DNA of 32,470 nt, from IMG/VR virus record IMGVR_UViG_3300048904_000202, positions 132,007 to 164,476 of that record; one strand, 5' to 3'. Below, piece by piece: positions 1 through 32,470 of the stretch. The notes beneath the pieces are model-generated. The model saw only the letters and a program-made list of their open reading frames with translations. It did not search any database and had not been told where the DNA came from. The first letter of the stretch is position 1; every line of letters begins with the position of its first letter. The position numbers and the translations under genes are program-made. The DNA comes from a virus. Its lineage: Duplodnaviria > Heunggongvirae > Uroviricota > Caudoviricetes.

Positions 1-1
1 C

Positions 2-49
2 AAGGGCCGGCGCGGCACCAAGAAGCTGAAAGGCTCCAGCCACGCGTGA
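2..49 (+). CDS. 3' end of an upstream gene (…KGRRGTKKLKGSSHA*), product unknown
   Basis: Open frame 2 ending TGA 47-49, followed by hairpins; only 15 codons visible. Confidence 0.3.
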   Translation, partial: KGRRGTKKLKGSSHA

Positions 50-174
50 TCCCGGCCTGTCCGAAGAATGCCTACATCTTTCGGACAGCCAAGGTGGCCC
101 GTTAACCATATCTGTTTAGGTTAACATCCGGCGCGGACCAGTTAACCTTAACAGACCGCATCTCGTGGACCTCT

Positions 175-210
175 GGGGACCCTTTTCCTGAACGGAACGG
201 GGTCCCTTTT
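175..210 (+). terminator. GGGACCC/GGGTCCC inverted repeat followed by TTTT; possible terminator or DNA-level motif
   Basis: GGGACCC 176-182 pairs with GGGTCCC 200-206, then TTTT. Confidence 0.35.
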
Positions 211-1000
211 CGTATCTGGCTCATGGTACCTACTTTCAGCGTGACGCTCGGGGACCCTTCCGAAATGAGAAGGGGCCGGTGTTCCCGTTCGGGAGCAAAA
301 TAGCCCCGTAGCCGCGATCGAGCAGCATATGCTCCCGTACGGGATCATCACCGGTCACCATCACGCGCTAACTCCCACAGCATCACCCCACCGCCACCAA
401 TATACCACCACGACGCCGGCCGATCTCGCCAAACTGGCGCCCGGCGGCCGAAAAGTGTCCCAAACCGTTTTCTGTCAACAGATTTTGCCTGATTTTTTCT
501 GTCATCGCACCTGAAAAAGTGCCTATTTGCCATATATTTAGCTCCGTGCCACCGCGACGCAATGACCGAGAATGAGCATTAGTAGTCATCACGATTTCAA
601 TTGACACGATTTCGCTTGACCCGGCGAAAATCGAAAAACTGCCGGCCGGCGACCGCGATCGGGCTGAGGTGTCGACAGAAAAGCCTCCTTCTCGGTCAAC
701 ACGGCGAATCGCCCCGAATCAGGTCACGACTCGCGGAAATGCGTGGTTTTCCTCACTGGGAGCGACCGAGAACAACGGTTAGGGGAGGGCACGGGGGCGT
801 GGGGATCATAGCGCCGATCCGCATGGGGCAGGGACGGCGTCTCGACCCTCCAGAGTGGATAATGCCGGCGAGAGAAGCCTATTCGCCGGGATTGCCCGTT
901 CTGGACCCCATTTTTGGCCAAGAATGCGTCAAAATCTACTAAAAACGCTGTAAAAACAGCATTTTAGCCTCCAAAATCGCGTTTTTCTGCCGATTTCGGC

Positions 1001-1135
1001 GAACAGCGGAGGGTATTTTGACCAAGATCGCCGCGAACAGCGGTCGCCATTTTGGCCGGAGGACCCGCGAACAGCCGACGCCATTTTCGCCGCGCGCCCG
1101 GTGAACAGCGGACGCCATTTTGGCGGAGTCATTTT
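1001..1135. repeat. Tandem array, 4 copies, exact 34-bp period, core GAACAGC(G/C)G(A/T)CGCCATTTT
   Basis: GAACAGC starts at 1001, 1035, 1069, 1103. Confidence 0.9.
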
Positions 1136-1205
1136 CGCGCGAGAGCCAGACCGCGCCGCCGCCCGACCTCGCCAAATGGTTAACGCGCTGCTAACTGAGT
1201 ACGAG

Positions 1206-1340
1206 GTAAGGTTAACGAAAACAGCGAGCGCGTTAAGGTTGACGAGTAGTAAGGTTAACGATCCGGTTAAGGTTAACAAATATTAAGGTTAACGATCCAG
1301 TTAGGGTTAACGAGTGGTAACCCTAACGGATATGGTTAAC
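1206..1340. repeat. TTAAGGTTAAC array: three 34-bp units, each made of 16+18-bp subrepeats
   Basis: Units start 1233, 1267, 1301; TTAA-like doublets at 1206, 1233, 1249, 1267, 1283, 1301, 1317. Confidence 0.85.
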
Positions 1341-1356
1341 AAATTCACGGCGAATA

Positions 1357-1436
1357 TTAACTATCTTTCTCGTGGACTCGTGCTGGACTATCCCCTAGAC
1401 CGTGATTGCGCCGATTCGCGGCGCGGGAGACACAAC
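1357..1436 (+). promoter_or_regulatory. Early cassette promoter-leader A
   Basis: TTAA 1357, CTCGTGGA 1369, TGGACT-N17-TAGACC (1373/1396), hairpin GCGCCG-ATTCG-CGGCGC from 1408, SD GGGAGAC. Confidence 0.75.
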
Positions 1437-1805
1437 ATGCAAGTTTTCAAACGCCTTTCCGCCGCACTCAAAGCCGCAGGTGACGGCCCTTATCTCCGTA
1501 TCGGAACCGGTAACGATAAGCTCTACATCGTCGGTATCGAAAGCCATACCGGAATTGAGCTTGTCAGCGAAGTGAAGCCTCCCAAAGGCTCGCAAACAAC
1601 CGGCTCGCGCCTCATTTCCGGGCAAGTTCTTCTCGGACATCTCGACCGGCTGGGTAACGCCAACAGCGCGGCGGCCGCTCGCCTGAATCGGGAACCTACG
1701 TTCCGTCAAGCTGGTCTGTCGCAAAACTTCATGCGCGAAGCTGACCGCGAAGATTACGAGACCATGTGCCAAGCCGAAAAAGCGAAACAGGCGGAGATCG
1801 CGTAA
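1437..1805 (+). CDS. Hypothetical early protein, 122 aa (MQVFKRL…)
   Basis: ATG behind conserved GGGAGAC SD; start re-called from the track ORF 1314..1805. Confidence 0.8.
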   Translation: MQVFKRLSAALKAAGDGPYLRIGTGNDKLYIVGIESHTGIELVSEVKPPKGSQTTGSRLISGQVLLGHLDRLGNANSAAAARLNREPTFRQAGLSQNFMREADREDYETMCQAEKAKQAEIA

Positions 1806-2056
1806 TGTACGTCATCCGTCACAGCATCACCGGCAACGCCATATCGTCGCATCTATTCGAGATGACCGCAAAAGACCTTCGCGAGGCGCAAGCGTCCGAT
1901 ACGTACGATATCGAGGCGAACACGGGCGACGGCGTGTTTCACGAACACGTCACCGCCGAACGCGCACACCGCCATGTCAAACAGGGCCGCATACATTCAA
2001 CGCCGCTCTATATCGACGATCGCGGACGCATCCGCTACGCGCGGGACGGTTACTGA
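1805..2056 (+). CDS. Hypothetical early protein, 83 aa
   Basis: TAATG stop-start overlap with the upstream gene. Confidence 0.75.
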   Translation: MYVIRHSITGNAISSHLFEMTAKDLREAQASDTYDIEANTGDGVFHEHVTAERAHRHVKQGRIHSTPLYIDDRGRIRYARDGY

Positions 2057-2286
2057 TGCAGCGCGTAGAGATCGCACGGGGCGGCGGATTCGCCCTTATC
2101 AGCATCGGTAACGGGTGGGCCTATGAACTGGGCTGCAACGGCGCCAGTGGGACAATTTTCGTCCAAGGTGACGACGCAACCCAGTTTCGCGAGGAATGGG
2201 ACGCGCTGGAGCAAGCGAAGCCAGACACCCACACAACCGCGCTACTGCGCGAGATGTGGGACCGATATGCGGAGATCGCTAGTTGA
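2056..2286 (+). CDS. Hypothetical early protein, 76 aa
   Basis: TGATG overlap; FVQGDDA motif. Confidence 0.75.
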   Translation: MQRVEIARGGGFALISIGNGWAYELGCNGASGTIFVQGDDATQFREEWDALEQAKPDTHTTALLREMWDRYAEIAS

Positions 2287-2354
2287 TTGGCGCGATCGGG
2301 CGACTCATCTGTGGGCTGTTCCTGATACTCATCGCGGGCGCCTTCATTCTCTAA
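2283..2354 (+). CDS. 23-aa hydrophobic microprotein MIGAIGRLICGLFLILIAGAFIL
   Basis: TTG start overlapping upstream TGA, GGAG at 2271, ends just before terminator; paralog at 6423-6494. Confidence 0.65.
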   Translation: MIGAIGRLICGLFLILIAGAFIL

Positions 2355-2357
2355 CCC

Positions 2358-2383
2358 GGCGGGCCACGGCCCGCCTTTTCTTT
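2358..2383 (+). terminator. Intrinsic terminator
   Basis: GGCGGGC-CACG-GCCCGCC then TTTTCTTT. Confidence 0.85.
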
Positions 2384-2399
2384 ACCCGGTAACCGGTCG

Positions 2400-2518
2400 T
2401 TAACCTTAACAAAATCGCCTCAGTCCATTAACCATCTAACTCGTGGGCCATTGTTGACTCCTGCTGGCGATTCAGCGTAGATAACTCCTACACCGATTCG
2501 CGGTGTGGGAGACACGAC
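2400..2518 (+). promoter_or_regulatory. Early cassette promoter-leader B
   Basis: GTTAACCTTAAC, TTAACCAT 2428, CTCGTGG 2440, TTGACT-N18-TAGATA, 9-bp hairpin with ATTCG loop, GGGAGAC. Confidence 0.8.
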
Positions 2519-2659
2519 ATGCAAGTAACTGTTACCATCCCGGCGAGCGTACAGGCCGCCAAAATCGCGGCACGCGCCGCGCCGACCATGGCGGAAGCCG
2601 CTCGCATCTACTGCGACGCTCTGCGTAGCGCTAAGCTGCCTCTCCCGGTGATCCGGTGA
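2519..2659 (+). CDS. Hypothetical early microprotein, 46 aa (MQVTVTIPAS…)
   Basis: ATG directly behind conserved SD; below the ORF-track size cutoff. Confidence 0.75.
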   Translation: MQVTVTIPASVQAAKIAARAAPTMAEAARIYCDALRSAKLPLPVIR

Positions 2660-2733
2660 AGGCCCGCGCTCGCAAGCGGGCGGACCGCATCGCGGCGCTC
2701 TCGCGCTGGATCATGAAGGGACGGAAGGGCTAA
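2656..2733 (+). CDS. 25-aa Arg/Lys-rich peptide MKARARKRADRIAALSRWIMKGRKG
   Basis: GTGA overlap; fills the gap exactly up to the next gene's RBS. Confidence 0.5.
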   Translation: MKARARKRADRIAALSRWIMKGRKG

Positions 2734-2736
2734 GCC

Positions 2737-3207
2737 ATGACCACCAAAAAAGCTCAAAAGGCCGCTGAAATCGCGGAAGCGATAGAATCGCTGCGCAAGC
2801 TGATCAAGCCGGGCGACACGATTTATTGCGTCCTGCGGTCGCGCTCCTCGTCGGGCATGTCGCGGGTTATCGACCTGCTTATTCCCTATCGGGAAGTCAT
2901 TACCGAATATCCGCCACTCCCGGCCGATAAGGCGGAATATCCGGGACAACGCGATTACAACGCAAAGCCCAAAACCAAAGCGGGCAAGCTCCGTATTCGC
3001 TCGATCGGCTGGACCGCTTCGAAAGCTATGGAGCGGACTCACGACTCGGATAAGGGAGGTATTTCCATCGCTGGTTGTGGGATGGATATGGGCTTTGCCC
3101 TCGTTTACGATCTGGGGCGTACGCTTTACCCGAAGGGCGCGAAGGGAAGCGCCCTCAGGGAAGGACAGAAAGACGGCGGGTACGCTTTCAAACACGAATG
3201 GCTTTGA
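2737..3207 (+). CDS. Hypothetical phage protein, 156 aa (KPGDTIYCVLR…SGMSR; GCGMDMGFALVY motifs)
   Basis: Clean ORF, purine-rich RBS, followed by terminator. Confidence 0.85.
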   Translation: MTTKKAQKAAEIAEAIESLRKLIKPGDTIYCVLRSRSSSGMSRVIDLLIPYREVITEYPPLPADKAEYPGQRDYNAKPKTKAGKLRIRSIGWTASKAMERTHDSDKGGISIAGCGMDMGFALVYDLGRTLYPKGAKGSALREGQKDGGYAFKHEWL

Positions 3208-3210
3208 CTG

Positions 3211-3237
3211 GGAGGGCTACGGCCCTCCTTTTCTTTT
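3211..3237 (+). terminator. Intrinsic terminator
   Basis: GGAGGGC-TACG-GCCCTCC then TTTTCTTTT. Confidence 0.9.
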
Positions 3238-3252
3238 GCGCAGAACTCTTCG

Positions 3253-3361
3253 TTAAGGTTAACCGCCGGCCGGAAACCGTTAACCGTCTATCTCGTGGAA
3301 TATTGCTTGACCCGACTCGTGGACTCGGTCTAGACCCTGATTCGCAATTGGGAGACGCAAC
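3253..3361 (+). promoter_or_regulatory. Early cassette promoter-leader C
   Basis: TTAA at 3253/3259/3280, CTCGTGGA 3292 and 3317, TTGACC-N18-TAGACC, TG-ATTCG-CA, GGGAGAC. Confidence 0.75.
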
Positions 3362-3523
3362 ATGTGCCTGACAGTGAAAAAGTCCCGCGACGGTAAGACC
3401 ATCATGGTTTCTCGCAACGGACGGTTTGACGTGTCGCAGCGTGACGGGCGCGGCGACTGGGTTCGCAAGCTCGAACAGGTTTCGCTTGGCGAAGCCGAGT
3501 CGTTCATGCGTTTGCATCCGTAA
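3362..3523 (+). CDS. Hypothetical early protein, 53 aa (MCLTVKKSRDG…), paralog of 4254-4457
   Basis: ATG behind conserved SD; sequence similarity to 4254-4457. Confidence 0.75.
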   Translation: MCLTVKKSRDGKTIMVSRNGRFDVSQRDGRGDWVRKLEQVSLGEAESFMRLHP

Positions 3524-3534
3524 GGGGAGGGGCC

Positions 3535-3690
3535 GTGTTGTTCGCTACTCGCACCAAGCTGGCTTGGTTTACCGTCGTGACGACGTTGCGGACGTTCCGC
3601 CTCGAAGCGGCGGACCTCGCGACCGCGACCGAAACCGCGTCGCATATCATCATTTCCTGTATCGAAACCGTAGTGGAGGTAAAACCATGA
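3535..3690 (+). CDS. Hypothetical protein, ~51 aa (GTG 3535 or TTG 3538)
   Basis: GGGGAGG RBS at 3524-3530; ATGA overlap with the next gene. Confidence 0.6.
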   Translation: MLFATRTKLAWFTVVTTLRTFRLEAADLATATETASHIIISCIETVVEVKP

Positions 3691-3884
3691 TCCAGATCAT
3701 TGAGTCCAACATGTCGCGCCGCACCGTCATCGCGACCGCGCCCGATTTCGCCGCTGCCAAAGCGAAGGTTGAGGCGATGGGTGTCGCCTACATGGAGGAT
3801 GACGCCGATCACGCCGATTGCGCTGACGCCTACACAAATGACGGGCGCGTCATCGCGATTCAGCCCGAAGGGTTCAAGCTGTGA
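3687..3884 (+). CDS. Hypothetical protein, 65 aa (MIQIIESN…)
   Basis: GGAGG RBS, ATGA overlap. Confidence 0.75.
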   Translation: MIQIIESNMSRRTVIATAPDFAAAKAKVEAMGVAYMEDDADHADCADAYTNDGRVIAIQPEGFKL

Positions 3885-4093
3885 AGCTGGAGCCCGTAAC
3901 CGTTCGCCTAGAATTAGATCGGGCAAGCCTTAATCGCTATCTAGGCAACGTCGAAAGCGTGCCTTTAGAGACGGCCGTAGCGGAGCTTTTGGGCAATCTG
4001 CTAGGTGAGTTGCCTTTCTATTGCGAGCGTTGCGGGACGGCGCATCAAGAGGATACCGGAATCAAAGGACGGTTTGAGATCATGGAAAGCTAG
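3881..4093 (+). CDS. Hypothetical protein, 70 aa, with CxxC (CERC)
   Basis: GTGA overlap; ends at terminator. Confidence 0.7.
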   Translation: MKLEPVTVRLELDRASLNRYLGNVESVPLETAVAELLGNLLGELPFYCERCGTAHQEDTGIKGRFEIMES

Positions 4094-4118
4094 GAGGTCC
4101 GCAAGGCCCTTCCTTTTT
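4093..4118 (+). terminator. Intrinsic terminator
   Basis: GGTCC-GCAA-GGCCC stem with extension, then TTTTT. Confidence 0.7.
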
Positions 4119-4133
4119 GGCGGTAACTGGAGG

Positions 4134-4253
4134 TTAACCTTAACGAACGGCCGCGAATCGTTAACCATCTAACTCGTGGACTCAGTGTTGACTCGTGGAC
4201 TCGACTCGGGCATTAAGGTGCTACGCCGAGTCGTGGCGTATGGGAGACACGCA
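4134..4253 (+). promoter_or_regulatory. Early cassette promoter-leader D
   Basis: TTAA 4134/4140/4161, CTCGTGGA twice, TTGACT 4188, six GANTC sites, hairpin TACGCCG-AGTCG-TGGCGTA, GGGAGAC. Confidence 0.8.
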
Positions 4254-4457
4254 ATGAATACCGTTCGCAAGAGCCCCGATGGAAACATCATGATCGTACA
4301 GCGTCCTAGCGGCTATGCCGTCTCGACCCGTGCGCCGCACTGGAACCCCGGAGATTCCATTCGCATCATCGGCGTGCAAACGCTGGAATGGGCAACGGTC
4401 GCAAAAGGCTTGGACCTCAGCGCCGCAACCGCCATGTTTGACAAGCTGGCAGCCTAA
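4254..4457 (+). CDS. Hypothetical early protein, 67 aa (MNTVRKSPDG…), paralog of 3362-3523
   Basis: ATG behind conserved SD; start re-called. Confidence 0.8.
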   Translation: MNTVRKSPDGNIMIVQRPSGYAVSTRAPHWNPGDSIRIIGVQTLEWATVAKGLDLSAATAMFDKLAA

Positions 4458-4469
4458 GGAGTCCTAACA

Positions 4470-5027
4470 ATGCCTGAGTTCATCGCGGATACAGACGGGA
4501 CCGTAAATGGCATGTCGTTTGACGACCTGTCAGACATTTTTCAGGGCTACGTTGAAGCCATGCTTTTCACCGAAACTTGCAGCGGTATCAGCATGGTCGA
4601 TTGGAACGACCCGAAAAACGTCGAGGATGTCGAGGAAGGGCGCGCCGATGGAAGCATCCCGACCGACGCCGGATGGGGCGACATTCATCCCAACTCGGCG
4701 GAGCGCATGCAACTCGATTGCTTCAATTTCGAGGTTGAAGCTCGCGACCTGTTGGCGCAAGCCTATCGCCATACCTTTCCAGCCCGCACGATCGGCGACG
4801 GGACGTTGCCTGATAGTCACCGCGAAGCATGGGACTATGACGCGAAAGCGGCCGGCCGCGACTTTTGGTACACCCGCAATGGTCACGGTGTCGGTTTCTG
4901 GGATCGTGGACTCGGCGACATTGGCGACAAGCTAGCGGAGATTGCCCGCAAATATGGAACGGTAAACGTGTCGTTCGGCCCGGATGAAAGCTCACCGACC
5001 GGTTACGGATACGTCTACGCGGAATGA
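4470..5027 (+). CDS. Hypothetical phage protein, 185 aa, acidic, DFWYTRNGHGVGFWDR motif
   Basis: AAGGAG RBS, clean ORF, terminator after. Confidence 0.85.
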   Translation: MPEFIADTDGTVNGMSFDDLSDIFQGYVEAMLFTETCSGISMVDWNDPKNVEDVEEGRADGSIPTDAGWGDIHPNSAERMQLDCFNFEVEARDLLAQAYRHTFPARTIGDGTLPDSHREAWDYDAKAAGRDFWYTRNGHGVGFWDRGLGDIGDKLAEIARKYGTVNVSFGPDESSPTGYGYVYAE

Positions 5028-5033
5028 AGGGGA

Positions 5034-5062
5034 GGGGCTGGGCAACCGGTCCCTTTCTCTTT
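5034..5062 (+). terminator. Intrinsic terminator
   Basis: GGGGCTGG-GCAA-CCGGTCCC then TTTCTCTTT. Confidence 0.75.
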
Positions 5063-5077
5063 GCTGGTATGCACTCA

Positions 5078-5206
5078 TTAACGTTAACGAACGTGTCCGA
5101 TCTGTTAACCAAACAAAAAGAGGTCTAACTCGTGGACTCATGTTGACTCAGCACGTGGACTCGTCCATCACTTTCCTACGGCGACTCGCGCCGTGGGAGA
5201 CACAAA
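5078..5206 (+). promoter_or_regulatory. Early cassette promoter-leader E
   Basis: TTAA 5078/5084/5105, CTCGTGGA 5129, TTGACT 5143, 9-bp hairpin with ACTCG loop, GGGAGAC. Confidence 0.8.
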
Positions 5207-5332
5207 ATGCGTATTACTTTCGAGGTGAAACCGGGTAACAAGCTGGGCAAGCGGATCGACCGCGCCGACAAGCGCGACCGTCGCGAGCAGCGCCGGGCGA
5301 AGGAAGCCCGCCAGCGTTTCTTTCACGCCTAA
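5207..5332 (+). CDS. 41-aa arginine-rich peptide MRITFEVKPGNKLGKRIDRADKRDRREQRRAKEARQRFFHA
   Basis: ATG behind conserved SD; stop abuts the next RBS. Confidence 0.75.
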   Translation: MRITFEVKPGNKLGKRIDRADKRDRREQRRAKEARQRFFHA

Positions 5333-5345
5333 GGAGGGCGACACA

Positions 5346-5831
5346 ATGGAAGCTCAGTTCCGCAATATCGACATCAAGGGACCGCAGCGCGTCAAGTTCC
5401 AGTGGCGTCGCGAAACGCCACGCGATGAAACGTCCGACCGTCCAGACGAACGCGATGATGGTTTCTGGCCGTCGCTCAACCCGGAAGAAGCCGGCTATAT
5501 CGGCGACGCCGAGCCGTCCGACGTTGATGGCGCTGCACAGCAAGCCCGCTACGACTCTGCGCTGGCAGCCGCTGAAAAGCGTATGGAAGCATGGGAAAAT
5601 GACGAATGGGAGTTCGTCGGTGTCGTCGCCGTCGCGGAAGTCGCTATCCCTATTGGTGGTGGGTCCTACGCCCTCCACACGTTCCGCTCGCCGGGCGTTT
5701 GGGGCGTGGAAAGCGATGCGGGAGATTATCTTGACACGCTCTATGTAGAGCAAAAGGCCGAGTTGCTTGCACAACTCCGCACGCTGGGCGCGGCGCTTGG
5801 TCAACCCGCCGACTTCGACGAGGAAGGCTGA
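5346..5831 (+). CDS. Hypothetical phage protein, 161 aa, acidic (EWEFVGVV…GVWGVESD)
   Basis: AAGGAGG RBS, terminator after. Confidence 0.85.
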   Translation: MEAQFRNIDIKGPQRVKFQWRRETPRDETSDRPDERDDGFWPSLNPEEAGYIGDAEPSDVDGAAQQARYDSALAAAEKRMEAWENDEWEFVGVVAVAEVAIPIGGGSYALHTFRSPGVWGVESDAGDYLDTLYVEQKAELLAQLRTLGAALGQPADFDEEG

Positions 5832-5838
5832 AAGGCGA

Positions 5839-5862
5839 GGGGGCGGGGAAACCCGCCCCTTT
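5839..5862 (+). terminator. Intrinsic terminator
   Basis: GGGGCGGG-GAAA-CCCGCCCC-TTT. Confidence 0.8.
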
Positions 5863-5867
5863 CGTGG

Positions 5868-6006
5868 TTAACGATAAAGGCCTACAGGTTAACCTTAACA
5901 AACCGACCTAAATCATTAACCATCTGACTCGTGGAATTATGTTGACCCGACTCGCGGACTTCGCCTAGACAGGTATTGTACCGATTCGCGGTGCGGGAGA
6001 CACGAA
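5868..6006 (+). promoter_or_regulatory. Early cassette promoter-leader F
   Basis: TTAA 5868/5889/5895/5916, CTCGTGGA 5928, TTGACC-N18-TAGACA, hairpin TGTACCG-ATTCG-CGGTGCG, GGGAGAC. Confidence 0.8.
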
Positions 6007-6426
6007 ATGCATAACGCCAAAATTCAACCGGCTTGGGCTCAATTCATCAAGCGCGACCAAACGGAAAACCGCGTCGCGTTCGTCGCCGCGCTCCTGATGG
6101 AACGCGTTCCACTGGCGCAATCTAAGCGAGCGATCGAGAAAGGGGATGATTTCAAGCTTAGGTCGCATATCGCCGAGGGCTTCGCCGTCGAGTTGTCGCG
6201 GCTTGCGCGCGCCATTAAGCGCCACGCTGAGAATGCGTGCAATCGCGAAGTGTCGGAAGCCGAGGAAGCGCGCGACGCCAAGAATCAGGCCCGTTTCGCT
6301 GCGATTGCCTCAGCGCTTGGTTTCGAGGCCCGCACCGGCGGCGATCCTCGTGGCGCGTGCGCCTACTTGATCGATCCAGATGACCGGAAGGGGGATGGCT
6401 GGGGCGAAGGCTGGGCGGTCTATTGA
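6007..6426 (+). CDS. Hypothetical early protein, 139 aa (GGDPRG motif)
   Basis: ATG behind conserved SD. Confidence 0.85.
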   Translation: MHNAKIQPAWAQFIKRDQTENRVAFVAALLMERVPLAQSKRAIEKGDDFKLRSHIAEGFAVELSRLARAIKRHAENACNREVSEAEEARDAKNQARFAAIASALGFEARTGGDPRGACAYLIDPDDRKGDGWGEGWAVY

Positions 6427-6494
6427 TATCCGCCCTAGCGCGCCTTTTCGGCGGACTTTTCCTAATCCTACTGGCTAGCGCCTTTCTGCACTGA
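6423..6494 (+). CDS. 23-aa hydrophobic microprotein MISALARLFGGLFLILLASAFLH
   Basis: TTGA overlap; 14/23 identical to 2283-2354; precedes a hairpin. Confidence 0.65.
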   Translation: MISALARLFGGLFLILLASAFLH

Positions 6495-6504
6495 GCCCAA
6501 ATCT

Positions 6505-6532
6505 AGGCCGGCGCCAACGCGCCGGCCTTTCT
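6505..6532 (+). terminator. Probable intrinsic terminator
   Basis: AGGCCGGCGC-CAAC-GCGCCGGCCT then TTCT. Confidence 0.7.
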
Positions 6533-6623
6533 ATGTGCCTGCCACATGGGTTAACACAGCACCATGAACTATTAACCAGATTTGTTCGTAGACTGGTAAG
6601 GTGACAAGCCATAAACTGGGCGC

Positions 6624-6800
6624 ATGGAAACGACGACTCACCACATAACAGCGGCCTTGCGGGACAAGCGCATTGCGCAGATCATGAAAAGAGAAGGCTT
6701 CGACTATCTCGGCGCTTACCGCCGCGATCAAGCAAGGCAGGCTGTCAACGCCACGCTACGCGCTGCGCCACGTTGTGCCTCAATCAACATGTGCAAATGA
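6624..6800 (+). CDS. Hypothetical protein, 58 aa (METTTHH…), probably leaderless
   Basis: No SD, but TAGACT-N17-TAAACT (6589/6612) places the start site at about the ATG. Confidence 0.5.
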   Translation: METTTHHITAALRDKRIAQIMKREGFDYLGAYRRDQARQAVNATLRAAPRCASINMCK

Positions 6801-6807
6801 CGTGCTA

Positions 6808-6889
6808 CTCGTGGAAGATACGTGGAATATGACTTGACCGAATCGATACGACTCGTCTATAAACGAATCACTGATTAGGGAGACACGAC
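6808..6889 (+). promoter_or_regulatory. Early cassette promoter-leader G (divergent copy)
   Basis: CTCGTGGA 6808, TTGACC-N18-TATAAA, three GANTC, GGGAGACACGACATG. Confidence 0.75.
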
Positions 6890-7183
6890 ATGACCAACGC
6901 AATGCCCGCTTTCACTGTCCTAGTTAACAAGCTGGCTATCGGTCGCGTTAGCGCTGTATCGCACGCACAAGCGATGACCCGTGCCCGCGCCCTTGCCCGC
7001 GCCGCTGGCCACGCCCGGTTCGAGATCGAGGCGGAAGGCAACGTCACCCTTGACCGCGCCGCACGCACCAATTTCAGCCGCTCCGATACGTCCTATAGCG
7101 CGGGCCGCGCCCCCTACGCCACGCCGGGCTTTGAAGAGCGCCGCGCTGCTATGATAGCAGCCTATAAGGCGGGCGCGCTCTAA
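6890..7183 (+). CDS. Hypothetical early protein, 97 aa, Ala/Arg-rich
   Basis: ATG behind conserved SD; strong terminator after. Confidence 0.8.
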   Translation: MTNAMPAFTVLVNKLAIGRVSAVSHAQAMTRARALARAAGHARFEIEAEGNVTLDRAARTNFSRSDTSYSAGRAPYATPGFEERRAAMIAAYKAGAL

Positions 7184-7204
7184 GCCACACACCCGACGCC
7201 ACAC

Positions 7205-7240
7205 AGCGCCGCCTAGCAGCCCAGCTAGGCGGCGCTTTTT
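7205..7240 (+). terminator. Strong intrinsic terminator closing the early array
   Basis: 13-bp perfect stem AGCGCCGCCTAGC/GCTAGGCGGCGCT plus T run. Confidence 0.9.
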
Positions 7241-7538
7241 CGTGCCCGTGTTCATTAAGGTAAACGATTCGTTAACTATAACGACACGATCGCGCTTAGC
7301 GACGCGTTAGGATTGTGCGTCGCTAACCTCACCGCGCGGCGCGACAGTATCACCAAAATTCGCTTGGCAGGCGCGTCCTAGGGAGAGCCTAGGGGACCCA
7401 AAGGGGTATACCCTCCGTTAACCAAACCGGCCCTCTAGGCGCGCGCCTAATGTAATAGAGGTCGGAATTTCAGAACTCTGCCGAGTCAAGTTTCGCTCGA
7501 CTTTTCCGTCCGATGGTGTTAGTATCTCTGTCCATGGT

Positions 7539-7849
7539 CATCACGGCCATCCCATCACTCGCAAAGGGACCCACGGGGGACCCATCCCGCACATCACGGA
7601 CAAATCGAACCCCGTCAATTTTGTACACCCATATCGACAAATTCAGAACTGTGATCCTCGCAAGCGGATCGCAGTTTTCTCACCCACAGGGTGAGGAGAA
7701 CTCTACCCGGCCGTCGAATTGGCATCACGGCGAAATGAGTAGGGGACCCATCGACGGTACGTCATCACGGCAGACTTCGAATGGGTCCCATTGGCGGTAT
7801 CACATCACGGCCAGAGGATAGAGGTCTCCTCGGCAGTATCACATCACCG
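7539..7849. repeat. CATCACGG direct repeats, the last four with ~40-bp period, interleaved with GGGACCC
   Basis: CATCACGG at 7539, 7592, 7723, 7763, 7803; CATCACCG at 7842; GGGACCC at 7566, 7577, 7743 and reverse at 7783. Confidence 0.75.
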
Positions 7850-7940
7850 CGAGTGATGAGCGATCGAACCGTCAGGCTTGTCCAGCTTGATACCCTTCAT
7901 CGCAGCGACCGGCCGAGCCGGCGCAATCACGGAGTCTCCC

Positions 7941-8690
7941 GTGTCCAAGCCCAAGCAGAAGTTCTTCCCCACCGAACCGCAGCACAAGGAAGCCCAGCAG
8001 GCCGTCCTAAAGCTGCCCACCGAGGAAATCCCGCTCAAGCCGCGTAACGCGACCCAGCGCTTCTATTTCCGCTCCTGCCAGAACATCAACTACCCCTACG
8101 TCATCGGCCACGGTCCGGCCGGCGGCGGTAAGACCCACGGGCCAGTGATTGCGGCGATCAACGCTCTCCGTGCCGGAGAGATTCAGAAGATCATCATCAC
8201 GCGCCCGATGGTCGGCGCCGGTGGTGAGGACTTGGGCACGCTTCCGGGCGGCGTCGTCGAGAAAGTGGCACCGTGGTGCATCCCGATCCTCGACATCCTC
8301 AAGGAGCATTACACCCCTGCACAGGTCGCGTCGCTGATCGAGCGGGAGATCATCGAGATCGCGCCACTCGCGCTGATGCGTGGCCGCACCCTCAAGAACG
8401 CCTACATCATCGTGGACGAAGCGCAGAACACGACACCCGAGCAGATGGAAATGATGCTCACCCGGCTCGGCGAGGGCAGTCGCATGTTCATCACCGGCGA
8501 CGAGAAGCAGCACGATCGCGAATATGCGCTGCCGGGTCTGGTCGACCTGCTGCGCCGCCTCGAACGCTATCCGAACGACGATTTCGCCATCCACGGCTTC
8601 CGCAAGTCGGATTGCGTTCGTCACCCGGCGATCCAGAACGTGTTGAACATGTATGCGGGCGAACCGGTCGGCATGGCGGTGGCGGCATGA
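7941..8690 (+). CDS. phoH: PhoH-family ATPase
   Basis: Walker A GPAGGGKT, IIITRP, RGRTL, DEAQN, GDEKQHD; GTG start behind GGAG at 7931. Confidence 0.95.
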   Translation: MSKPKQKFFPTEPQHKEAQQAVLKLPTEEIPLKPRNATQRFYFRSCQNINYPYVIGHGPAGGGKTHGPVIAAINALRAGEIQKIIITRPMVGAGGEDLGTLPGGVVEKVAPWCIPILDILKEHYTPAQVASLIEREIIEIAPLALMRGRTLKNAYIIVDEAQNTTPEQMEMMLTRLGEGSRMFITGDEKQHDREYALPGLVDLLRRLERYPNDDFAIHGFRKSDCVRHPAIQNVLNMYAGEPVGMAVAA

Positions 8691-9115
8691 CCGGAGAGCT
8701 TCGACATAGCCAAGCGAGCCAGCAGGGCGAGCTTCCTGTCATTCACGCGACCGTCATGACGCAAGGGGAGGGCGGCCACCCGGCCGCCTTCCTTCGCGCC
8801 GGCTGCCAACTGACGACTGAGGCGCCGCCATCCCGGCCAAAGGATAAGCTGGCGATCGTCTGTGCCAGCATGGACCACGCGGACAAAGTTGCCCGTCAAT
8901 ACGGGATCACCAACGCCCAGCGCAGGAATGAGGATGTCATGATCCTCGTGCCCGGACAGGCCGTCGTGGGCCACCGCTTCCACACCGTCCTCGTGACGGA
9001 CTGGTTCAACTTTCACCAGAAACATGCTGGCGAGAGCCGCCGCGCCTCCTTGCAGGAGTGGATCGAGGTAGACCTTCGCATCCGCGTCGGTACCGGAAAG
9101 ATCATCTACCTGTGA
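8687..9115 (+). CDS. Hypothetical protein, 142 aa
   Basis: ATGA overlap with phoH. Confidence 0.65.
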   Translation: MTGELRHSQASQQGELPVIHATVMTQGEGGHPAAFLRAGCQLTTEAPPSRPKDKLAIVCASMDHADKVARQYGITNAQRRNEDVMILVPGQAVVGHRFHTVLVTDWFNFHQKHAGESRRASLQEWIEVDLRIRVGTGKIIYL

Positions 9116-9393
9116 GCGTCAAGACCTGCATCATCGCCGAGCATGACATTGCCTGCCAGCAGCTTCGCCGAGAACTCGCGATCGGACCGGCCGGTGCATC
9201 ACTCGTCCACGCCAACCCTTACTTCCACGTCCTGACGCCGGGCGAGATGCCGTGTGCCGTCATGTACGATGAGGTGATAATCTTCGAGAGCGTGGACGAG
9301 AAGATTGCAACCTGCCCGCGCCACGAGGACTGGTTCGAGACTTGCATCCGCACCCGGATGACGCGAGACGCCCAGATCGTGATCGTCAAATGA
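9112..9393 (+). CDS. Hypothetical protein, 93 aa
   Basis: GTGA overlap; resembles the C-terminal half of the preceding ORF in layout. Confidence 0.65.
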   Translation: MSVKTCIIAEHDIACQQLRRELAIGPAGASLVHANPYFHVLTPGEMPCAVMYDEVIIFESVDEKIATCPRHEDWFETCIRTRMTRDAQIVIVK

Positions 9394-9605
9394 ACGATCC
9401 TTGCCGCATCGTGGAGATCAAGGAAGTCTCGGCTAAGTGCTGTCCGTTCTGCGGCCGACAAGACATCCGCACGTTGCGGACCAAGGAAAACATGTGGGCT
9501 ACGATCTGCTACCCGTTCGAGGACGGTTGCGGTGCCCGCACCGATTACCATTTCAGTGCTTGGTCATCACGCGCCGCGTGGGACCGCCGGGTGGACCCTA
9601 CTTGA
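9390..9605 (+). CDS. Lar-family (restriction alleviation-like) zinc-binding protein, 71 aa
   Basis: CPFCG … C … GCGA … AAWDRR pattern typical of the Lar family; ATGA overlap. Confidence 0.65.
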   Translation: MNDPCRIVEIKEVSAKCCPFCGRQDIRTLRTKENMWATICYPFEDGCGARTDYHFSAWSSRAAWDRRVDPT

Positions 9606-9639
9606 CATATTCCAGAACCTGTGTTAGTTTAACTGACAC
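9602..9639 (+). promoter_or_regulatory. Sigma70-type promoter with overlapping palindrome
   Basis: TTGACA-N17-TAGTTT; GTGTTAGTT-T-AACTGACAC at 9621-9639. Confidence 0.7.
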
Positions 9640-9960
9640 TGGTATCTGACCGAGATGGGGCTGGCGCGTAGTCGGCCTTCCATCTTGTGGACGAGACGAC
9701 AGGGTTGATGGATGGCAGCGGCTTCTTTGGTCGGTTGCCGCATCGTCCGTAGAGGAGTCGGTTCGGGCGTTCGTCCGCACGGCTCGGTCTCCAAACCTCC
9801 TTGCGTTCATGAACGGCATCACGGCCTGATCCGGTATTCGGACTGCCTGACCTTCGAGTGAGGTCACGAAGGGCGGTCCACCCCAAGGGAGCCTAGGGCA
9901 CAGGCGAAAGCCCCTGTCCGGTCGAAGCTCCCGCCCCATTCTTTCTGTCCAGCGCCCGTC
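9640..9960 (+). ncRNA. Candidate structured non-coding RNA or very long structured portal leader
   Basis: At least 7 hand-identified helices, GAAA tetraloop, no credible + strand ORF, own promoter. Confidence 0.45.
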
Positions 9961-10082
9961 ATTGCGCCTCCTTCCCGGCTTATGCCCTTGTGCCGGGGGA
10001 CACGAACAAGGGCCGTCTCCCTAACCTGCCCGGCTGCGCGTCTCCATCCGCGCGCCGGGCACTTTTTACGGACATCCTTCCC

Positions 10083-11894
10083 TTGGCCTCCGCCCCGCCC
10101 GAAAAGATCACCAAGAAGCAGGCCAAGTCATATCAGGCGCGGCAGGCGGCCTACGCGGCCAAGCGTTCCAAGCAACAGCTTGCCGATCTCATGCCGGCGT
10201 TCGTCAACTGGGACTATACCAACTGGCGCGACATCTGGCGCTCGATCCGACACGCGATGATCGGTGAAGTCGCCATCAAGCAGCAGGGCAAAATGTACCT
10301 GCCGCAGCCCGAGGGGATGGATGACGGCCAGTACGCCGCCTATCTCGATCGCGCCGTCTTCTACAACATGGTCTATCGCACGGTCACCGGACTCACCGGT
10401 GCCATCTTCCGTCGCGATCCGCGCCTCCTCAAAGCCAGCACGAACCTGACGGCTCTCACCAAGCGCGTTTCGAAGGACGGCCTCTCCCTCAATATCTTCG
10501 CCAAGGTCGTGGCGCAGGAAATGCTCTCGGTCGGCCGCTTCGGCATTCTGGCCGACAAGGCGGCATCCGACAGCCTCACGGCCAAGCCGTACCTCGCGGG
10601 ATATACCTGCGAGAACATCTTGGACTGGACGTGGACCGAGATCGACGGCCGCAACGAGTACGATTACATCTTGCTGCGCGAGTTCATCATGGACCGCCGC
10701 ATGTGGATCGCCGAGGGGAAGCAACTCGTCTCGAACCCGAGCTACGGTCAGCTTTTCTGCGCGTACCGCTGCCTTCGCCTGATCTACAACCCGGAGTTCG
10801 ATCGCTGGGAGTACATTCAGGAATATTACACCCGTGGCAACGAAGACGCGGACCTGACGGAAGACCCGGAGATCACGCAGCCGCTGATCTTTGGCGTGCC
10901 GATGAATCGCATCCCGTTCAGCTTCTTCAACGCGACGACCAACCTTGGCGACATCGAGAAGCCGCCGGTCCTCGACATCCTGTCGCTGAACCTTTCCCAC
11001 TACAAGACATATGCTCAGCTTGAGCATGGTCGCTTCTACACCGCGAACCCGGTCTACTGGGTGTCGGGGTCACAGGAAGACGACGAGTATCTGATCGGTC
11101 CATCAGTCGTCTGGGAAATTGGAACCAACGAAAAAGCAGGCCTCATCGAGTTTAATGGGCAGGGGCTCAAGTCGCTCGAAATCGCGCTCTCCACCAAGGA
11201 GACACAGGTCGCATCACTCGGCGGCCGGCTCATCGGCGACGCGGCAACTGCCGGTCAGTCCGACAATCAGATCAAGCTCAAGGATCGCAACGAACAGTCG
11301 CTGCTCCTCAACGTCACCACCGTCATCAACGAGAATTTCACGTTCCTGCTCGGCATCTTGGCTCAGTGGATGAACGAGAATACGGACGGTCTGGAGTTTC
11401 GGGTCAATCAGGACTTTCTCCTCGATGGCGCAGCAGCCCGCGAGTTCCGCGCCGTGGCGCAGATGTACGCGGACGGCATGGTACCGATCGAAATCTTCTA
11501 CGAGTATTTCCTCAAGAACGAGGTGATCCCCGATTACGTCGATCTGGAAACCTTCAAGAATCTCCTCGAAGACGCCAATCAGTTCCCGAACGATCCGGAC
11601 TTCGAAGCTCGCGTCGAAGGGTACAAGGACGCCGCTTCGAAGGTTTCCTCGGAGACCCAGATCAAGGTGGCCGAGATCACTGCCGGCGCGGCGACCGATG
11701 TGGCGGAAGCCAATAACGACACCAAGGTCGAGTTGCAGGAATCGCAGCAGCAGCACGACGCGCAGCAGAACGCCCAGCAGCGCAAGACGGACGAGAAGGT
11801 CGCCAAGAATCAGCCTCGGATTCCTCCGGTACCGACGCAAGGGCGACAGGCTCTCCAGCGCGATGCCACCAAGCCGGCCGGCGGGACCAAATAA
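10083..11894 (+). CDS. Portal protein (DUF4055-like); start uncertain (GTG 9990, TTG 10083 or ATG 10191)
   Basis: YLPQPEGMDDGQYAAYLDRAVFYN…RTVTGLTGAIFRRDP portal-type N-terminus; first gene of the head module. Confidence 0.85.
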   Translation: MASAPPEKITKKQAKSYQARQAAYAAKRSKQQLADLMPAFVNWDYTNWRDIWRSIRHAMIGEVAIKQQGKMYLPQPEGMDDGQYAAYLDRAVFYNMVYRTVTGLTGAIFRRDPRLLKASTNLTALTKRVSKDGLSLNIFAKVVAQEMLSVGRFGILADKAASDSLTAKPYLAGYTCENILDWTWTEIDGRNEYDYILLREFIMDRRMWIAEGKQLVSNPSYGQLFCAYRCLRLIYNPEFDRWEYIQEYYTRGNEDADLTEDPEITQPLIFGVPMNRIPFSFFNATTNLGDIEKPPVLDILSLNLSHYKTYAQLEHGRFYTANPVYWVSGSQEDDEYLIGPSVVWEIGTNEKAGLIEFNGQGLKSLEIALSTKETQVASLGGRLIGDAATAGQSDNQIKLKDRNEQSLLLNVTTVINENFTFLLGILAQWMNENTDGLEFRVNQDFLLDGAAAREFRAVAQMYADGMVPIEIFYEYFLKNEVIPDYVDLETFKNLLEDANQFPNDPDFEARVEGYKDAASKVSSETQIKVAEITAGAATDVAEANNDTKVELQESQQQHDAQQNAQQRKTDEKVAKNQPRIPPVPTQGRQALQRDATKPAGGTK

Positions 11895-31777: not shown

Positions 31778-32470
31778 ATGCCTAACACTCCGATCCTCGG
31801 CATTCCGCAGGTCTCGCCCACGCAAGCGCAGAAAGAAGTCACCATCAACGACGCCATCGTGGCGTTGGAGGCGGCGACCAATGGCAACCTGACGGTGACC
31901 TACGGCACCGAGGTCACCAAGACGCTTTCGGAAGCGCAGTTCACCCGCAACTTCCTGTTCACGGCCGATATCACCACGGCCGACGCGATCTTGCAGGTAC
32001 CGGCAACGATTGCCGGCGATCCGGCCAAGCGCCTCTTCGCGGTTCGCAACAAGACGACGTTCGGGCTCACCGTACGATCGGCGTCGGGGACGGGGGATTC
32101 GATCACGATCCCGAACGGCGAAGCACGCTTGCTCGCCATGGTGGACGACGACGTGATCGTTGCGGCGCAGCCGTCGACTCCGGTAGGCTTCCTTGCGCTG
32201 GCTGAGACACCCGACAGCTATGCCGGCAAGGCCGGACAGTTCCTCAAGGTTGCATCCAGCGAGGACGGTCTTGTGTTCGTGGCTGTTCTCGACACGATCG
32301 ACAATTTTGCCGATGTTGACCTGTCAGGACAGGTCGATGGTCAGGCGCTGATCCGCGTCGGCGGCGTCTGGAAGCCGGGCAATATCCCGTCATCTGTCCA
32401 CACCTTCCTTGCGCTCGATGACGTGCCTGACACGTACGGGGCGGCGGGGACGTTCGTTCGCGTCAATGGT
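31778..32470 (+). CDS. Tail fibre-like protein with DUF2793-type N-terminus (partial, runs off window)
   Basis: MPNTPILGIPQVSPTQAQKEVTINDAIVALE; open for 231 codons to the window end; AAGGA RBS. Confidence 0.8.
   Translation, partial: MPNTPILGIPQVSPTQAQKEVTINDAIVALEAATNGNLTVTYGTEVTKTLSEAQFTRNFLFTADITTADAILQVPATIAGDPAKRLFAVRNKTTFGLTVRSASGTGDSITIPNGEARLLAMVDDDVIVAAQPSTPVGFLALAETPDSYAGKAGQFLKVASSEDGLVFVAVLDTIDNFADVDLSGQVDGQALIRVGGVWKPGNIPSSVHTFLALDDVPDTYGAAGTFVRVNG

Follow-up and report, generated by a model that had tools for sequence, protein, structure and literature searches.

Standard promoter-leader modules form a probable early gene array in a Lacusarx/phiCbK-like phage

In the Caulobacter phage phiCbK the terminal repeat has been mapped experimentally and begins in or just after terL, the large terminase gene (PMC3556154). 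In Sphingobium phage Lacusarx, reads cover the 10.5 kb that follow terS/terL at twice the depth, and this stretch was interpreted as a direct terminal repeat (PMC5648845). Across the phiCbK cluster, to which Lacusarx belongs, the intergenic regions of the terminal repeats are dense in predicted CtrA sites that precede small genes of unknown function; two phiCbK terminal-repeat promoters are bound and activated by phosphorylated CtrA, CtrA regulation was shown for phiCbK gp005/gp018 and for Cp1R7A-A1, and orphan TTAA half-sites are bound by CtrA as well (PMC9437464). Another kind of repeat, the promoter-early stem-loop (PeSL) of T4-like myophages, is a composite of terminator and promoter that flanks orphan genes (PMC2839356, PMC4122927). 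Further, SPO1 has a host-takeover module, according to 1998 work in the form cited in PMC6873191, and T5 has a pre-early first-step-transfer region within its terminal repeat, as far as described in PMC3556154. Here we analyze an array of small-gene cassettes in the last 32,470 bases (the window) of a 164,476-base IMG/VR virus contig, IMGVR_UViG_3300048904_000202 (called G000).

The array is read, with a probability of roughly 0.7, as an early and probably first-expressed gene array of a Lacusarx/phiCbK-like phage that is built from standard modules, its plasticity being a by-product and not the purpose. The source is best explained as a large uncultivated, root-associated phage of sphingomonad-type bacteria, a virulent siphophage akin to Lacusarx and phiCbK. 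Its structural genes have about 75% DNA identity to those of Lacusarx and of Erythrobacter phages vB_EliS-L02 (L02) and XM05, and the stretch or part of it is present in ten root or soil metagenome runs, with no RNA run among the holders listed.

Window positions 1357–7240 hold seven cassettes on the same (+) strand, A to G, and a degenerate eighth unit, G′ (Table 1). The motif GGGAGACRC-N-ATG occurs seven times in the window, each time on the + strand (1425, 2507, 3350, 4242, 5195, 5995 and 6878), where shuffled sequences lead one to expect 0.25 copies; the whole 164-kb genome has just three more, all on the opposite strand. This count confirms the claim of a preliminary description of the same DNA that at least seven self-contained cassettes have a common promoter-leader. 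Chance repeats were rejected as the source of the array, and so was the tandem duplication of one gene, the cargo being unrelated.

When the seven units are aligned, a terminator T-run is followed by a GTTAAC(C/G)TTAAC doublet, 16–17 nt, the box TTAACC(A/G)TCT and then CTCGTGGA; after a further 6–7 nt come a TTGAC −35 element, about 18 nt, a TAGAC-type −10 element, the leader, and GGGAGAC-N5-ATG. Each ATG opens a series of one to four small open reading frames (ORFs), usually closed by an intrinsic terminator. The order of parts given in the preliminary description is borne out, but not every unit follows it in full. In unit A the −35 is degenerate (CTGGAC), in unit E an insertion separates the TTAACC box from CTCGTGGA, and unit G, which directly follows the previous ORF with no intervening terminator, has no TTAAC boxes; its promoter is of a type common to the sister clades (TTGACCGAATCG ... 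AACGAATCAC). The eighth unit is weaker and has neither CTCGTGGA nor GGGAGAC. Similarly, the leader hairpin that had been described is stable in A, B, D, E and F (5 of 7 units; −9 to −20 kcal/mol) and is absent on folding in C and G (−1 and −3 kcal/mol), and the proposed intrinsic terminators hold for six strong hairpins (at 2358, 3210, 5026, 5835, 6505 and 7205; −17 to −31 kcal/mol) but not for the one near 4093, which folds no better than shuffled sequence. Six of the seven internal junctions run from a hairpin and T-run into a promoter module within 30–90 nt, the hairpin being strong at five and weak near 4093, and the G′/G junction has no terminator. GTTAAC is found 25 times in the window against 3 expected. 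The 445 nt of leader contain 19 GANTC sites where 1.2 are expected, and the cargo is not enriched in them; each leader carries one to four such sites, and six of the seven have two to four. Judged from sequence, the view that the units are autonomous early transcription units is supported.

The array sits between terL and the PhoH and portal genes. Homologs of the cassette genes B3 and D2 lie at the right end of the Lacusarx record and in the annotated terminal repeats of Caulobacter phiCbK-like phages. Because of this synteny with the Lacusarx and phiCbK repeats, the array would occupy the terminal-repeat early region of a phage of the phiCbK/Lacusarx cluster, a region whose TTAA-rich promoters have been published as CtrA-controlled; the preliminary description had not placed the array. 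A terminal repeat collapses in metagenome assembly and cannot show in this contig, both ends of which are inside one repetitive gene (window 31778–32470 and the start of G000), and contig depth is unable to reveal a twofold repeat. The first 100 bases of G000 reappear 182 bases before the contig end. Since the contig ends in a repetitive gene with no exact end overlap, it was an internal repeat, not a genome end, that broke the assembly, and circularity of the contig was dropped as a clue to the termini. Contigs of four root-metagenome runs, compared with window 1–10000, gave short pieces identical to the window and no variant joints; one joint with 20-nt sides was discounted.

The layout of terL, array and PhoH holds in Lacusarx, in XM05 and in IMG/VR loci L087–L093 and L105–L112, and in Lacusarx, XM05 and ten metagenomic relatives an array comprises between about 7 and more than 30 repeats of the module. 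In Lacusarx, eight or more leaders end in GGGAGACAC-N-AAATG and have the same TTAAC boxes, with A-rich GACCAGAAGAAAAGGCC in place of CTCGTGGA. In XM05 more than 30 cassettes fill the 20 kb from terL to PhoH, each composed of a terminator, a TTAAGGTTAAC box, mostly GTTAACCAT, then GTGGAAAAAGTGCTTGACCGAATC, CCTAGAAAC and GAATCACC, with GGAGAC before the ATG; in six IMG/VR loci reached via PhoH (L087–L093), the 10 kb that precede PhoH contain 16–20 promoters of this sort. Eight loci reached via D2 homologs (L105–L112), with 65–79% protein identity and nearer than Lacusarx for D2, use doubled GTTGGAAAAAG, TTGACTAAC, GACTCG and AGGAGACGAA. What stays in place in all four clades is the set of boxes, −35, GGAGAC ribosome site and GANTC sites, both those directly downstream of the −35 and those in the leader, while the remaining sequence is clade-specific; each clade has its own promoter "dialect", that of L105–L112 being the fourth. 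No near-identical relative of the window's phage was found via its own dialect in IMG/VR or in metagenome contigs: the sole IMG/VR match (L084) is a chance match in AT-rich coding DNA, and the nine metagenome-contig matches are chance matches as well, none of them an array. A second promoter-leader family, of nine copies and genes, lies on the minus strand of G000 79388–117647. It has no TTAAC boxes and has the same TTGAC −35, −10, GANTC sites and ribosome site; most of its spacers end in AAGATTTGTCCTA, and mostly GAATC(A)GGGAGAC precedes the ATG. Because this second family with the same ribosome site serves an opposite-strand block, the leader would primarily be the phage's standard expression signal.

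The array has 19 ORFs of 23–185 aa, in agreement with the earlier estimate of about 19 ORFs with no recognisable function. No array ORF matches Pfam, PHROG matches are solely to families of unknown function, a PDB sequence search of the cargo returned nothing, and the Atlas neighbors are phage hypothetical proteins. The paralogs reported earlier in different cassettes are likewise found: A4 and F2, hydrophobic and putative membrane peptides, in a comparison made within this phage only, have 14 of 23 residues identical, with 3 identical codons and 11 synonymous differences, and the N-termini of C1 and D1 match (E 3e-4). The residues of A4 and F2 are kept though only three codons are identical, which argues that these peptides are under selection and are real genes. 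Each of the two is the last in its own cassette, with a TTG start that overlaps the upstream TGA stop (TTGA). A 33–47-aa peptide rich in Arg/Lys (E1 type) opens a cassette in all four clades and always precedes a 160–235-aa protein of at least three unrelated versions.

In the proposed mechanism, a module would comprise a TTAA-type box pair, a promoter of the host sigma-70 type (TTGAC and a TAGAC-like −10 about 18 nt apart), a GANTC-bearing leader and a ribosome site that is strong and invariant; between one and four small genes and an intrinsic terminator follow, giving eight short transcription units. After DNA entry, host RNA polymerase would fire all the units at once. Output would be set by a host regulator that reads the TTAA boxes, CtrA being the leading candidate, as in phiCbK, and the CcrM/GcrA methylation state may also have an influence. 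The products of the units would be small host-takeover proteins. A terminator-promoter module of 150–200 bp every 0.5–1 kb would also be a substrate for homologous recombination and gene conversion; as a result of this spacing of repeats, the leaders of one genome would stay alike and the region would be hyperplastic.

Several points weigh against the reading of an early array made of standard modules. An E. coli-type promoter scan flagged none of the leaders; it would miss them because the −10 is TAGAC-like and has no final T, and we blame the consensus for this failure and do not count it against promoters. Nowhere in the 164-kb genome is there an exact match to the canonical CtrA site, TTAA-N7-TTAA. 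The cargo has no recognisable function, and a host-takeover role for it is argued by analogy, just as the host-takeover or anti-defence role named in the preliminary description is pure inference. Three replacement events between 95–99% identical phages (L108/L109 and L106/L107) touch a leader at the downstream breakpoint only; the left breakpoint falls at the junction of two genes or 40 nt inside a gene. Nevertheless, the array is probably early and of the host-takeover type, with transcription starts, protein binding and the terminal repeat being predictions for this genome.

Gene content differs strongly between relatives. Only B2, B3, C3, part of D2, F1 and G1 are common to Lacusarx and the window at E<1e-3, and only B3, C2, D1, D2, E2, F1 and G1, in varying subsets, to L105–L112 and the window; with clustering at E 1e-4, C3 is found as well, in L112 only. 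The maps of cargo families differ widely among the window, Lacusarx, L105–L112 and the XM05-like loci, the slot behind the conserved E1 peptide holds three unrelated E2 versions, and L109 has a B3 homolog for which L108, 95% identical and recovered from the same sample, has no counterpart. The alignment of relatives, proposed earlier as a check, thus finds content far from invariant, but gene order constant in the window's clade. The shared genes stand in one order (B3, C3, D1, D2, E1, F1, G1) in the window, Lacusarx and L105–L112, and because of this order gain, loss and replacement would dominate in this clade, with little reordering. Alternatively, the leader may be kept mainly as a recombination handle, and whole cassettes may be excised, exchanged and reinserted between phages, as for PeSLs. 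We consider this unlikely, although a good part of the evidence agrees with it. Terminator-promoter repeats flank orphan genes as in the T4-like hyperplastic regions (PMC2839356, PMC4122927). The ends of homology blocks are about twofold enriched in leader windows: 74% of 138 distinct ends in the XM05-like clade lie in promoter windows (−110 to +80 of the promoter core), which cover 34–41% of the sequence, and 49% in the L106–L112 clade lie at promoter modules against about 24% expected, figures that are biased, since alignments run into any repeated conserved element wherever the true crossover lay. Cassettes are duplicated or reordered in the XM05-like clade, where L088 carries duplicates of families 1 and 2 and the position of families 12, 14, 15/16 and 26 varies, and families 5, 16 and 17 change place in L106–L112. 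Leaders appear to evolve in concert within each genome, with an identity of 52–55% within a genome, 36% between the window and Lacusarx, and 31–41% for the leaders of orthologous cargo; leader segments differ in their nearest neighbors, which is a weak result. However, the order of genes is kept across the window's clade, and many changes are at the level of genes inside cassettes, such as the three E2 versions and the C3 homolog that in Lacusarx comes directly after B3, no promoter separating the two. In the three recent replacement events mentioned above, the left breakpoints avoid the leaders and only the right ones coincide with the 5′ edge of the following leader (−91 to −136), so that each event has one breakpoint there, and nine promoters of the opposite-strand block use the same ribosome-site leader. 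Of the handle as first proposed, then, the enrichment of block ends and the concerted leaders stand, while constant order and single leader breakpoints speak against it. Turnover and concerted leaders fit recombination and gene conversion between leaders, which the reading as an early array with incidental plasticity also accommodates.

Cassettes could also be moved site-specifically at the leader sequence by a conserved short Xer-like tyrosine recombinase, in the manner of an integron. G000 encodes such a protein at 46909–47526 (L141 1480–2097), a 205-aa tyrosine recombinase that has the catalytic domain only, and its homologs are largely in the same phage cluster that bears the arrays: Lacusarx, XM05, L02, RXM, 39 Caulobacter phage records and Brevundimonas phages, which are phages regarded as virulent. 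Yet this gene, the only tyrosine recombinase in G000, which has no serine recombinase, is 86 kb from the array, breakpoints are not at one fixed site, the clades share no conserved attC-like element, integron cassettes do not each come with a promoter as these do, and the resolution of concatemers or dimers is a simpler role for an Xer-like enzyme. Movement of this kind is highly improbable, and the identity of the array as an integron was rejected on the own promoters, the distance of the recombinase and the lack of a fixed breakpoint site.

The question of what reads the boxes bears on the regulation of the early array. A box pair is a TTAAGGTTAAC doublet followed about 21 bp downstream by TTAACCAT, which is the CtrA half-site 8-mer of Caulobacter, a known motif of the CtrA regulon. 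Six of the nine genome copies of TTAACCAT are in window 1–7500, where 0.4 are expected; three copies are 27 bp upstream of a −35, near-variants are in other cassettes, and the box is also present in Lacusarx, XM05-like loci and L105–L109. In nearly every cassette of the four clades the proximal box lies about 26–27 bp upstream of the −35, and the intervening sequence differs. With one mismatch, TTAA-N7-TTAA occurs four times in window 1–7500, no more often than other spacings, and the favored TTAA spacings are N2, N17 and N23 (8, 9 and 6 exact copies). A search of G000 found no phage GcrA, CcrM-type methyltransferase or CtrA-like winged-helix (Trans_reg_C) protein, and for this reason a host factor would have to read the boxes. 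CtrA is the leading candidate, though the N7 spacing, one defining feature of CtrA sites, has no exact copy. The composite box GTTAASSTTAAC-N15-18-TTAACCAT has 28 matches in 185,579 prokaryote genomes, mostly chance matches in AT-rich genomes, too few to tie the box to a host regulon. One match, on a Sphingomonadaceae contig of some length, precedes by about 45 nt the gene for a 434-aa secreted protein that is perhaps TolC-like by its appearance; another is the fragment L128 described below.

It is also conceivable, but distinctly improbable, that the TTAAC boxes are not CtrA sites and that they bind another host or phage protein or act on the DNA itself, in the start of packaging, in the arrest of stepwise entry as in T5, or in replication, with their position at promoters being secondary. 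The box spacing of N2/N17 in place of the N7 of CtrA points this way, as do the dense box cluster and 34-bp iterons just past terL, where packaging would start, the near absence of the composite box from the prokaryote genomes save one long, apparently chromosomal sphingomonad contig, and the lack of a CtrA-like Trans_reg_C protein in G000. On the other hand, the fixed distance from box to −35 in four clades is the signature of a transcription-factor site, and TTAACCAT is a CtrA-regulon motif. In addition, the binding of CtrA to orphan TTAA half-sites and its activation of phiCbK terminal-repeat promoters (PMC9437464) favor CtrA. A bolder variant of the early array makes the module a combined sensor and exchange device, in which early genes read a CtrA-type regulator together with CcrM/GcrA methylation and the dialect is kept by gene conversion; we regard it as quite doubtful. 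If it were true, new orphan genes would be expressible on arrival and exchanged preferentially between phages of the same dialect, and the cluster's short Xer-like recombinase might assist such exchange.

Table 1. Coordinates of features in the window (positions in other loci are preceded by the name of the locus).
Feature	Position	Strand	Details
Large terminase (terL), 3′ end	1..49	+	573 aa, starts upstream of window; stop codon 47-49; Pfam Terminase_6C, E 6e-17; L104:12335-14053
Leader-like remnant with no cargo	101..175	+	three GTTAAC boxes, TTAAC doublet, CTCGTGGAC; repeats, leader alignment
Iteron-like repeats, 34 bp, three to four, upstream of array	999..1124	.	repeat search
Dense TTAAGGTTAAC/GTTAAC cluster preceding first cassette	1179..1340	.	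7 GTTAAC in ~160 bp; repeat and motif searches
Cassette A	1335..2375	+	boxes/leader 1335-1436; terminator 2358-2375
Cassette A ORFs	1437-1805, 1805-2056, 2056-2286, 2283-2354	+	last is A4, 23-aa hydrophobic, TTG start overlapping upstream stop
Cassette B	2399..3229	+	boxes/leader 2399-2518; terminator 3210-3229
Cassette B ORFs	2519-2659, 2656-2733, 2737-3207	+	second, 25-aa basic peptide; third, B3, phrog_12365
Cassette C	3252..4121	+	boxes/leader 3252-3361, no leader hairpin; weak terminator-like hairpin near 4089-4121
Cassette C ORFs	3362-3523, 3535-3690, 3687-3884, 3881-4093	+	
Cassette D	4133..5062	+	boxes/leader 4133-4253; terminator 5026-5062
Cassette D ORFs	4254-4457, 4470-5027	+	second, D2, phrog_1915, 665 relatives
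Cassette E	5078..5865	+	boxes/leader 5078-5206; terminator 5835-5865
Cassette E ORFs	5207-5332, 5346-5831	+	first, E1, 41-aa basic peptide
Cassette F	5867..6528	+	boxes/leader 5867-6006; terminator 6505-6528
Cassette F ORFs	6007-6426, 6423-6494	+	second, F2, 23-aa paralog of last peptide of cassette A
Degenerate unit G′	6550..6800	+	TTAAC boxes 6550, 6572; ORF 6624-6800 (58 aa)
Cassette G	6806..7236	+	ORF 6890-7183 (G1, conserved last gene before PhoH); terminator 7205-7236
Non-coding flank, array to PhoH	7240..7940	.	GGGACCC / CATCAC(G) repeats; XM05 has same motifs, same place
PhoH-like ATPase, first gene past array	7941..8690	+	Pfam PhoH, E 8e-65
Portal gene	9990-11894		downstream of array and PhoH
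E1-type peptide sites	window 5207-5332; L001 8573-8674; L106 11793-11894; L108 10733-10834; L085 12008-12151 (minus)		

The flanks of the array have repeats of their own. Just after terL, window 999–1340 consists of two adjoining arrays with a 34-bp period, made of GCGAACAGCGG...CGCCATTTTGGC units and of TTAAGGTTAAC doublets, and Lacusarx and XM05 have a like box cluster at the same place as window 1179–1340. These arrays may be a packaging start, an origin, or a nucleation site for a box-binding protein. GGGACCC and CATCAC(G) cluster on both array flanks (160–260 and 7380–7860), and upstream of PhoH in XM05; they possibly mark terminal-repeat boundaries, in which case 7240–7940 would be the right edge. 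Some relatives have extra genes between the array and PhoH (L106 15808–19766, L108 14907–17623 and L111 6509–6751). These encode HD_4 (RelA/SpoT-type HD) and HTH proteins, proteins of 306–335 aa with a weak Trans_reg_C match, and sigma-70 region 4/GerE proteins, and none of these kinds is found at the array-PhoH junction of the window's phage. A 2468-base contig binned in a Bryobacterales metagenome-assembled genome (L128, JAYVXT010000122.1) has four composite TTAAC boxes about 600 bp apart and is most likely a mis-binned fragment of a phage array of this type.

The array is a clear natural case of standardised expression parts, in which all early genes share a common design of promoter, ribosome site and terminator and each lineage rewrites the design as a block. 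Its small proteins, about 19, offer a candidate list for host-takeover or anti-defence screens; several are conserved across four clades, among them D2, F1, G1 and the basic E1 peptide. The CtrA link of phiCbK-type repeats would be extended to a root-associated phage of sphingomonad type and about a dozen uncultivated relatives, with a box geometry that is fixed yet non-canonical for CtrA and promoters that are saturated with CcrM methylation sites. In the parts of the literature on phiCbK-cluster repeats, PeSLs and SPO1/T5 that were covered, no description was found of the strict module, the dialects, the N2/N17 geometry, the saturation with GANTC, or the comparative evidence of turnover.

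The closest described systems are the terminal repeats of phiCbK, Rogue, Swift, Lacusarx and Cp1R7A-A1 (PMC9437464, PMC3556154, PMC5648845). They belong to the same lineage, lie at the same place after terL, and likewise have B3/D2 homologs, TTAA-rich intergenic regions and a turnover of content between relatives; the array differs in having TTAA-N2-TTAA and N17 with TTAACCAT, not TTAA-N7-TTAA, and in that its repeat is deduced from synteny. The likeness to the T4 promoter-stem-loop elements drawn in the preliminary description is upheld, since the anatomy fits that of PeSLs (PMC2839356, PMC4122927): a terminator stem-loop joined to a strong sigma-70-type early promoter, in many copies, in a hypervariable region of small orphan genes. 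In T4-like phages, however, the repeats bound indels and replacements, whereas here many breakpoints are at gene junctions. The phage lineage and host class are unrelated, the array forms a single uninterrupted block at the end of the genome, and its module is longer and adds transcription-factor boxes, GANTC sites and a fixed ribosome site. With SPO1 and T5 the array would have in common a terminal repeat whose small genes are divided among numerous short operons, every one of them under a strong early promoter of host type. The products of SPO1 and T5 act on the host and are known by experiment, whereas the array is known from sequence, is related in sequence to neither, and differs from both in its putative link to alphaproteobacterial cell-cycle regulators, which they do not have. 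The array is not a new type of system; it joins the known kinds, namely the CtrA-linked repeats of the phiCbK cluster, PeSL-like cassettes and the terminal early modules of SPO1 and T5.

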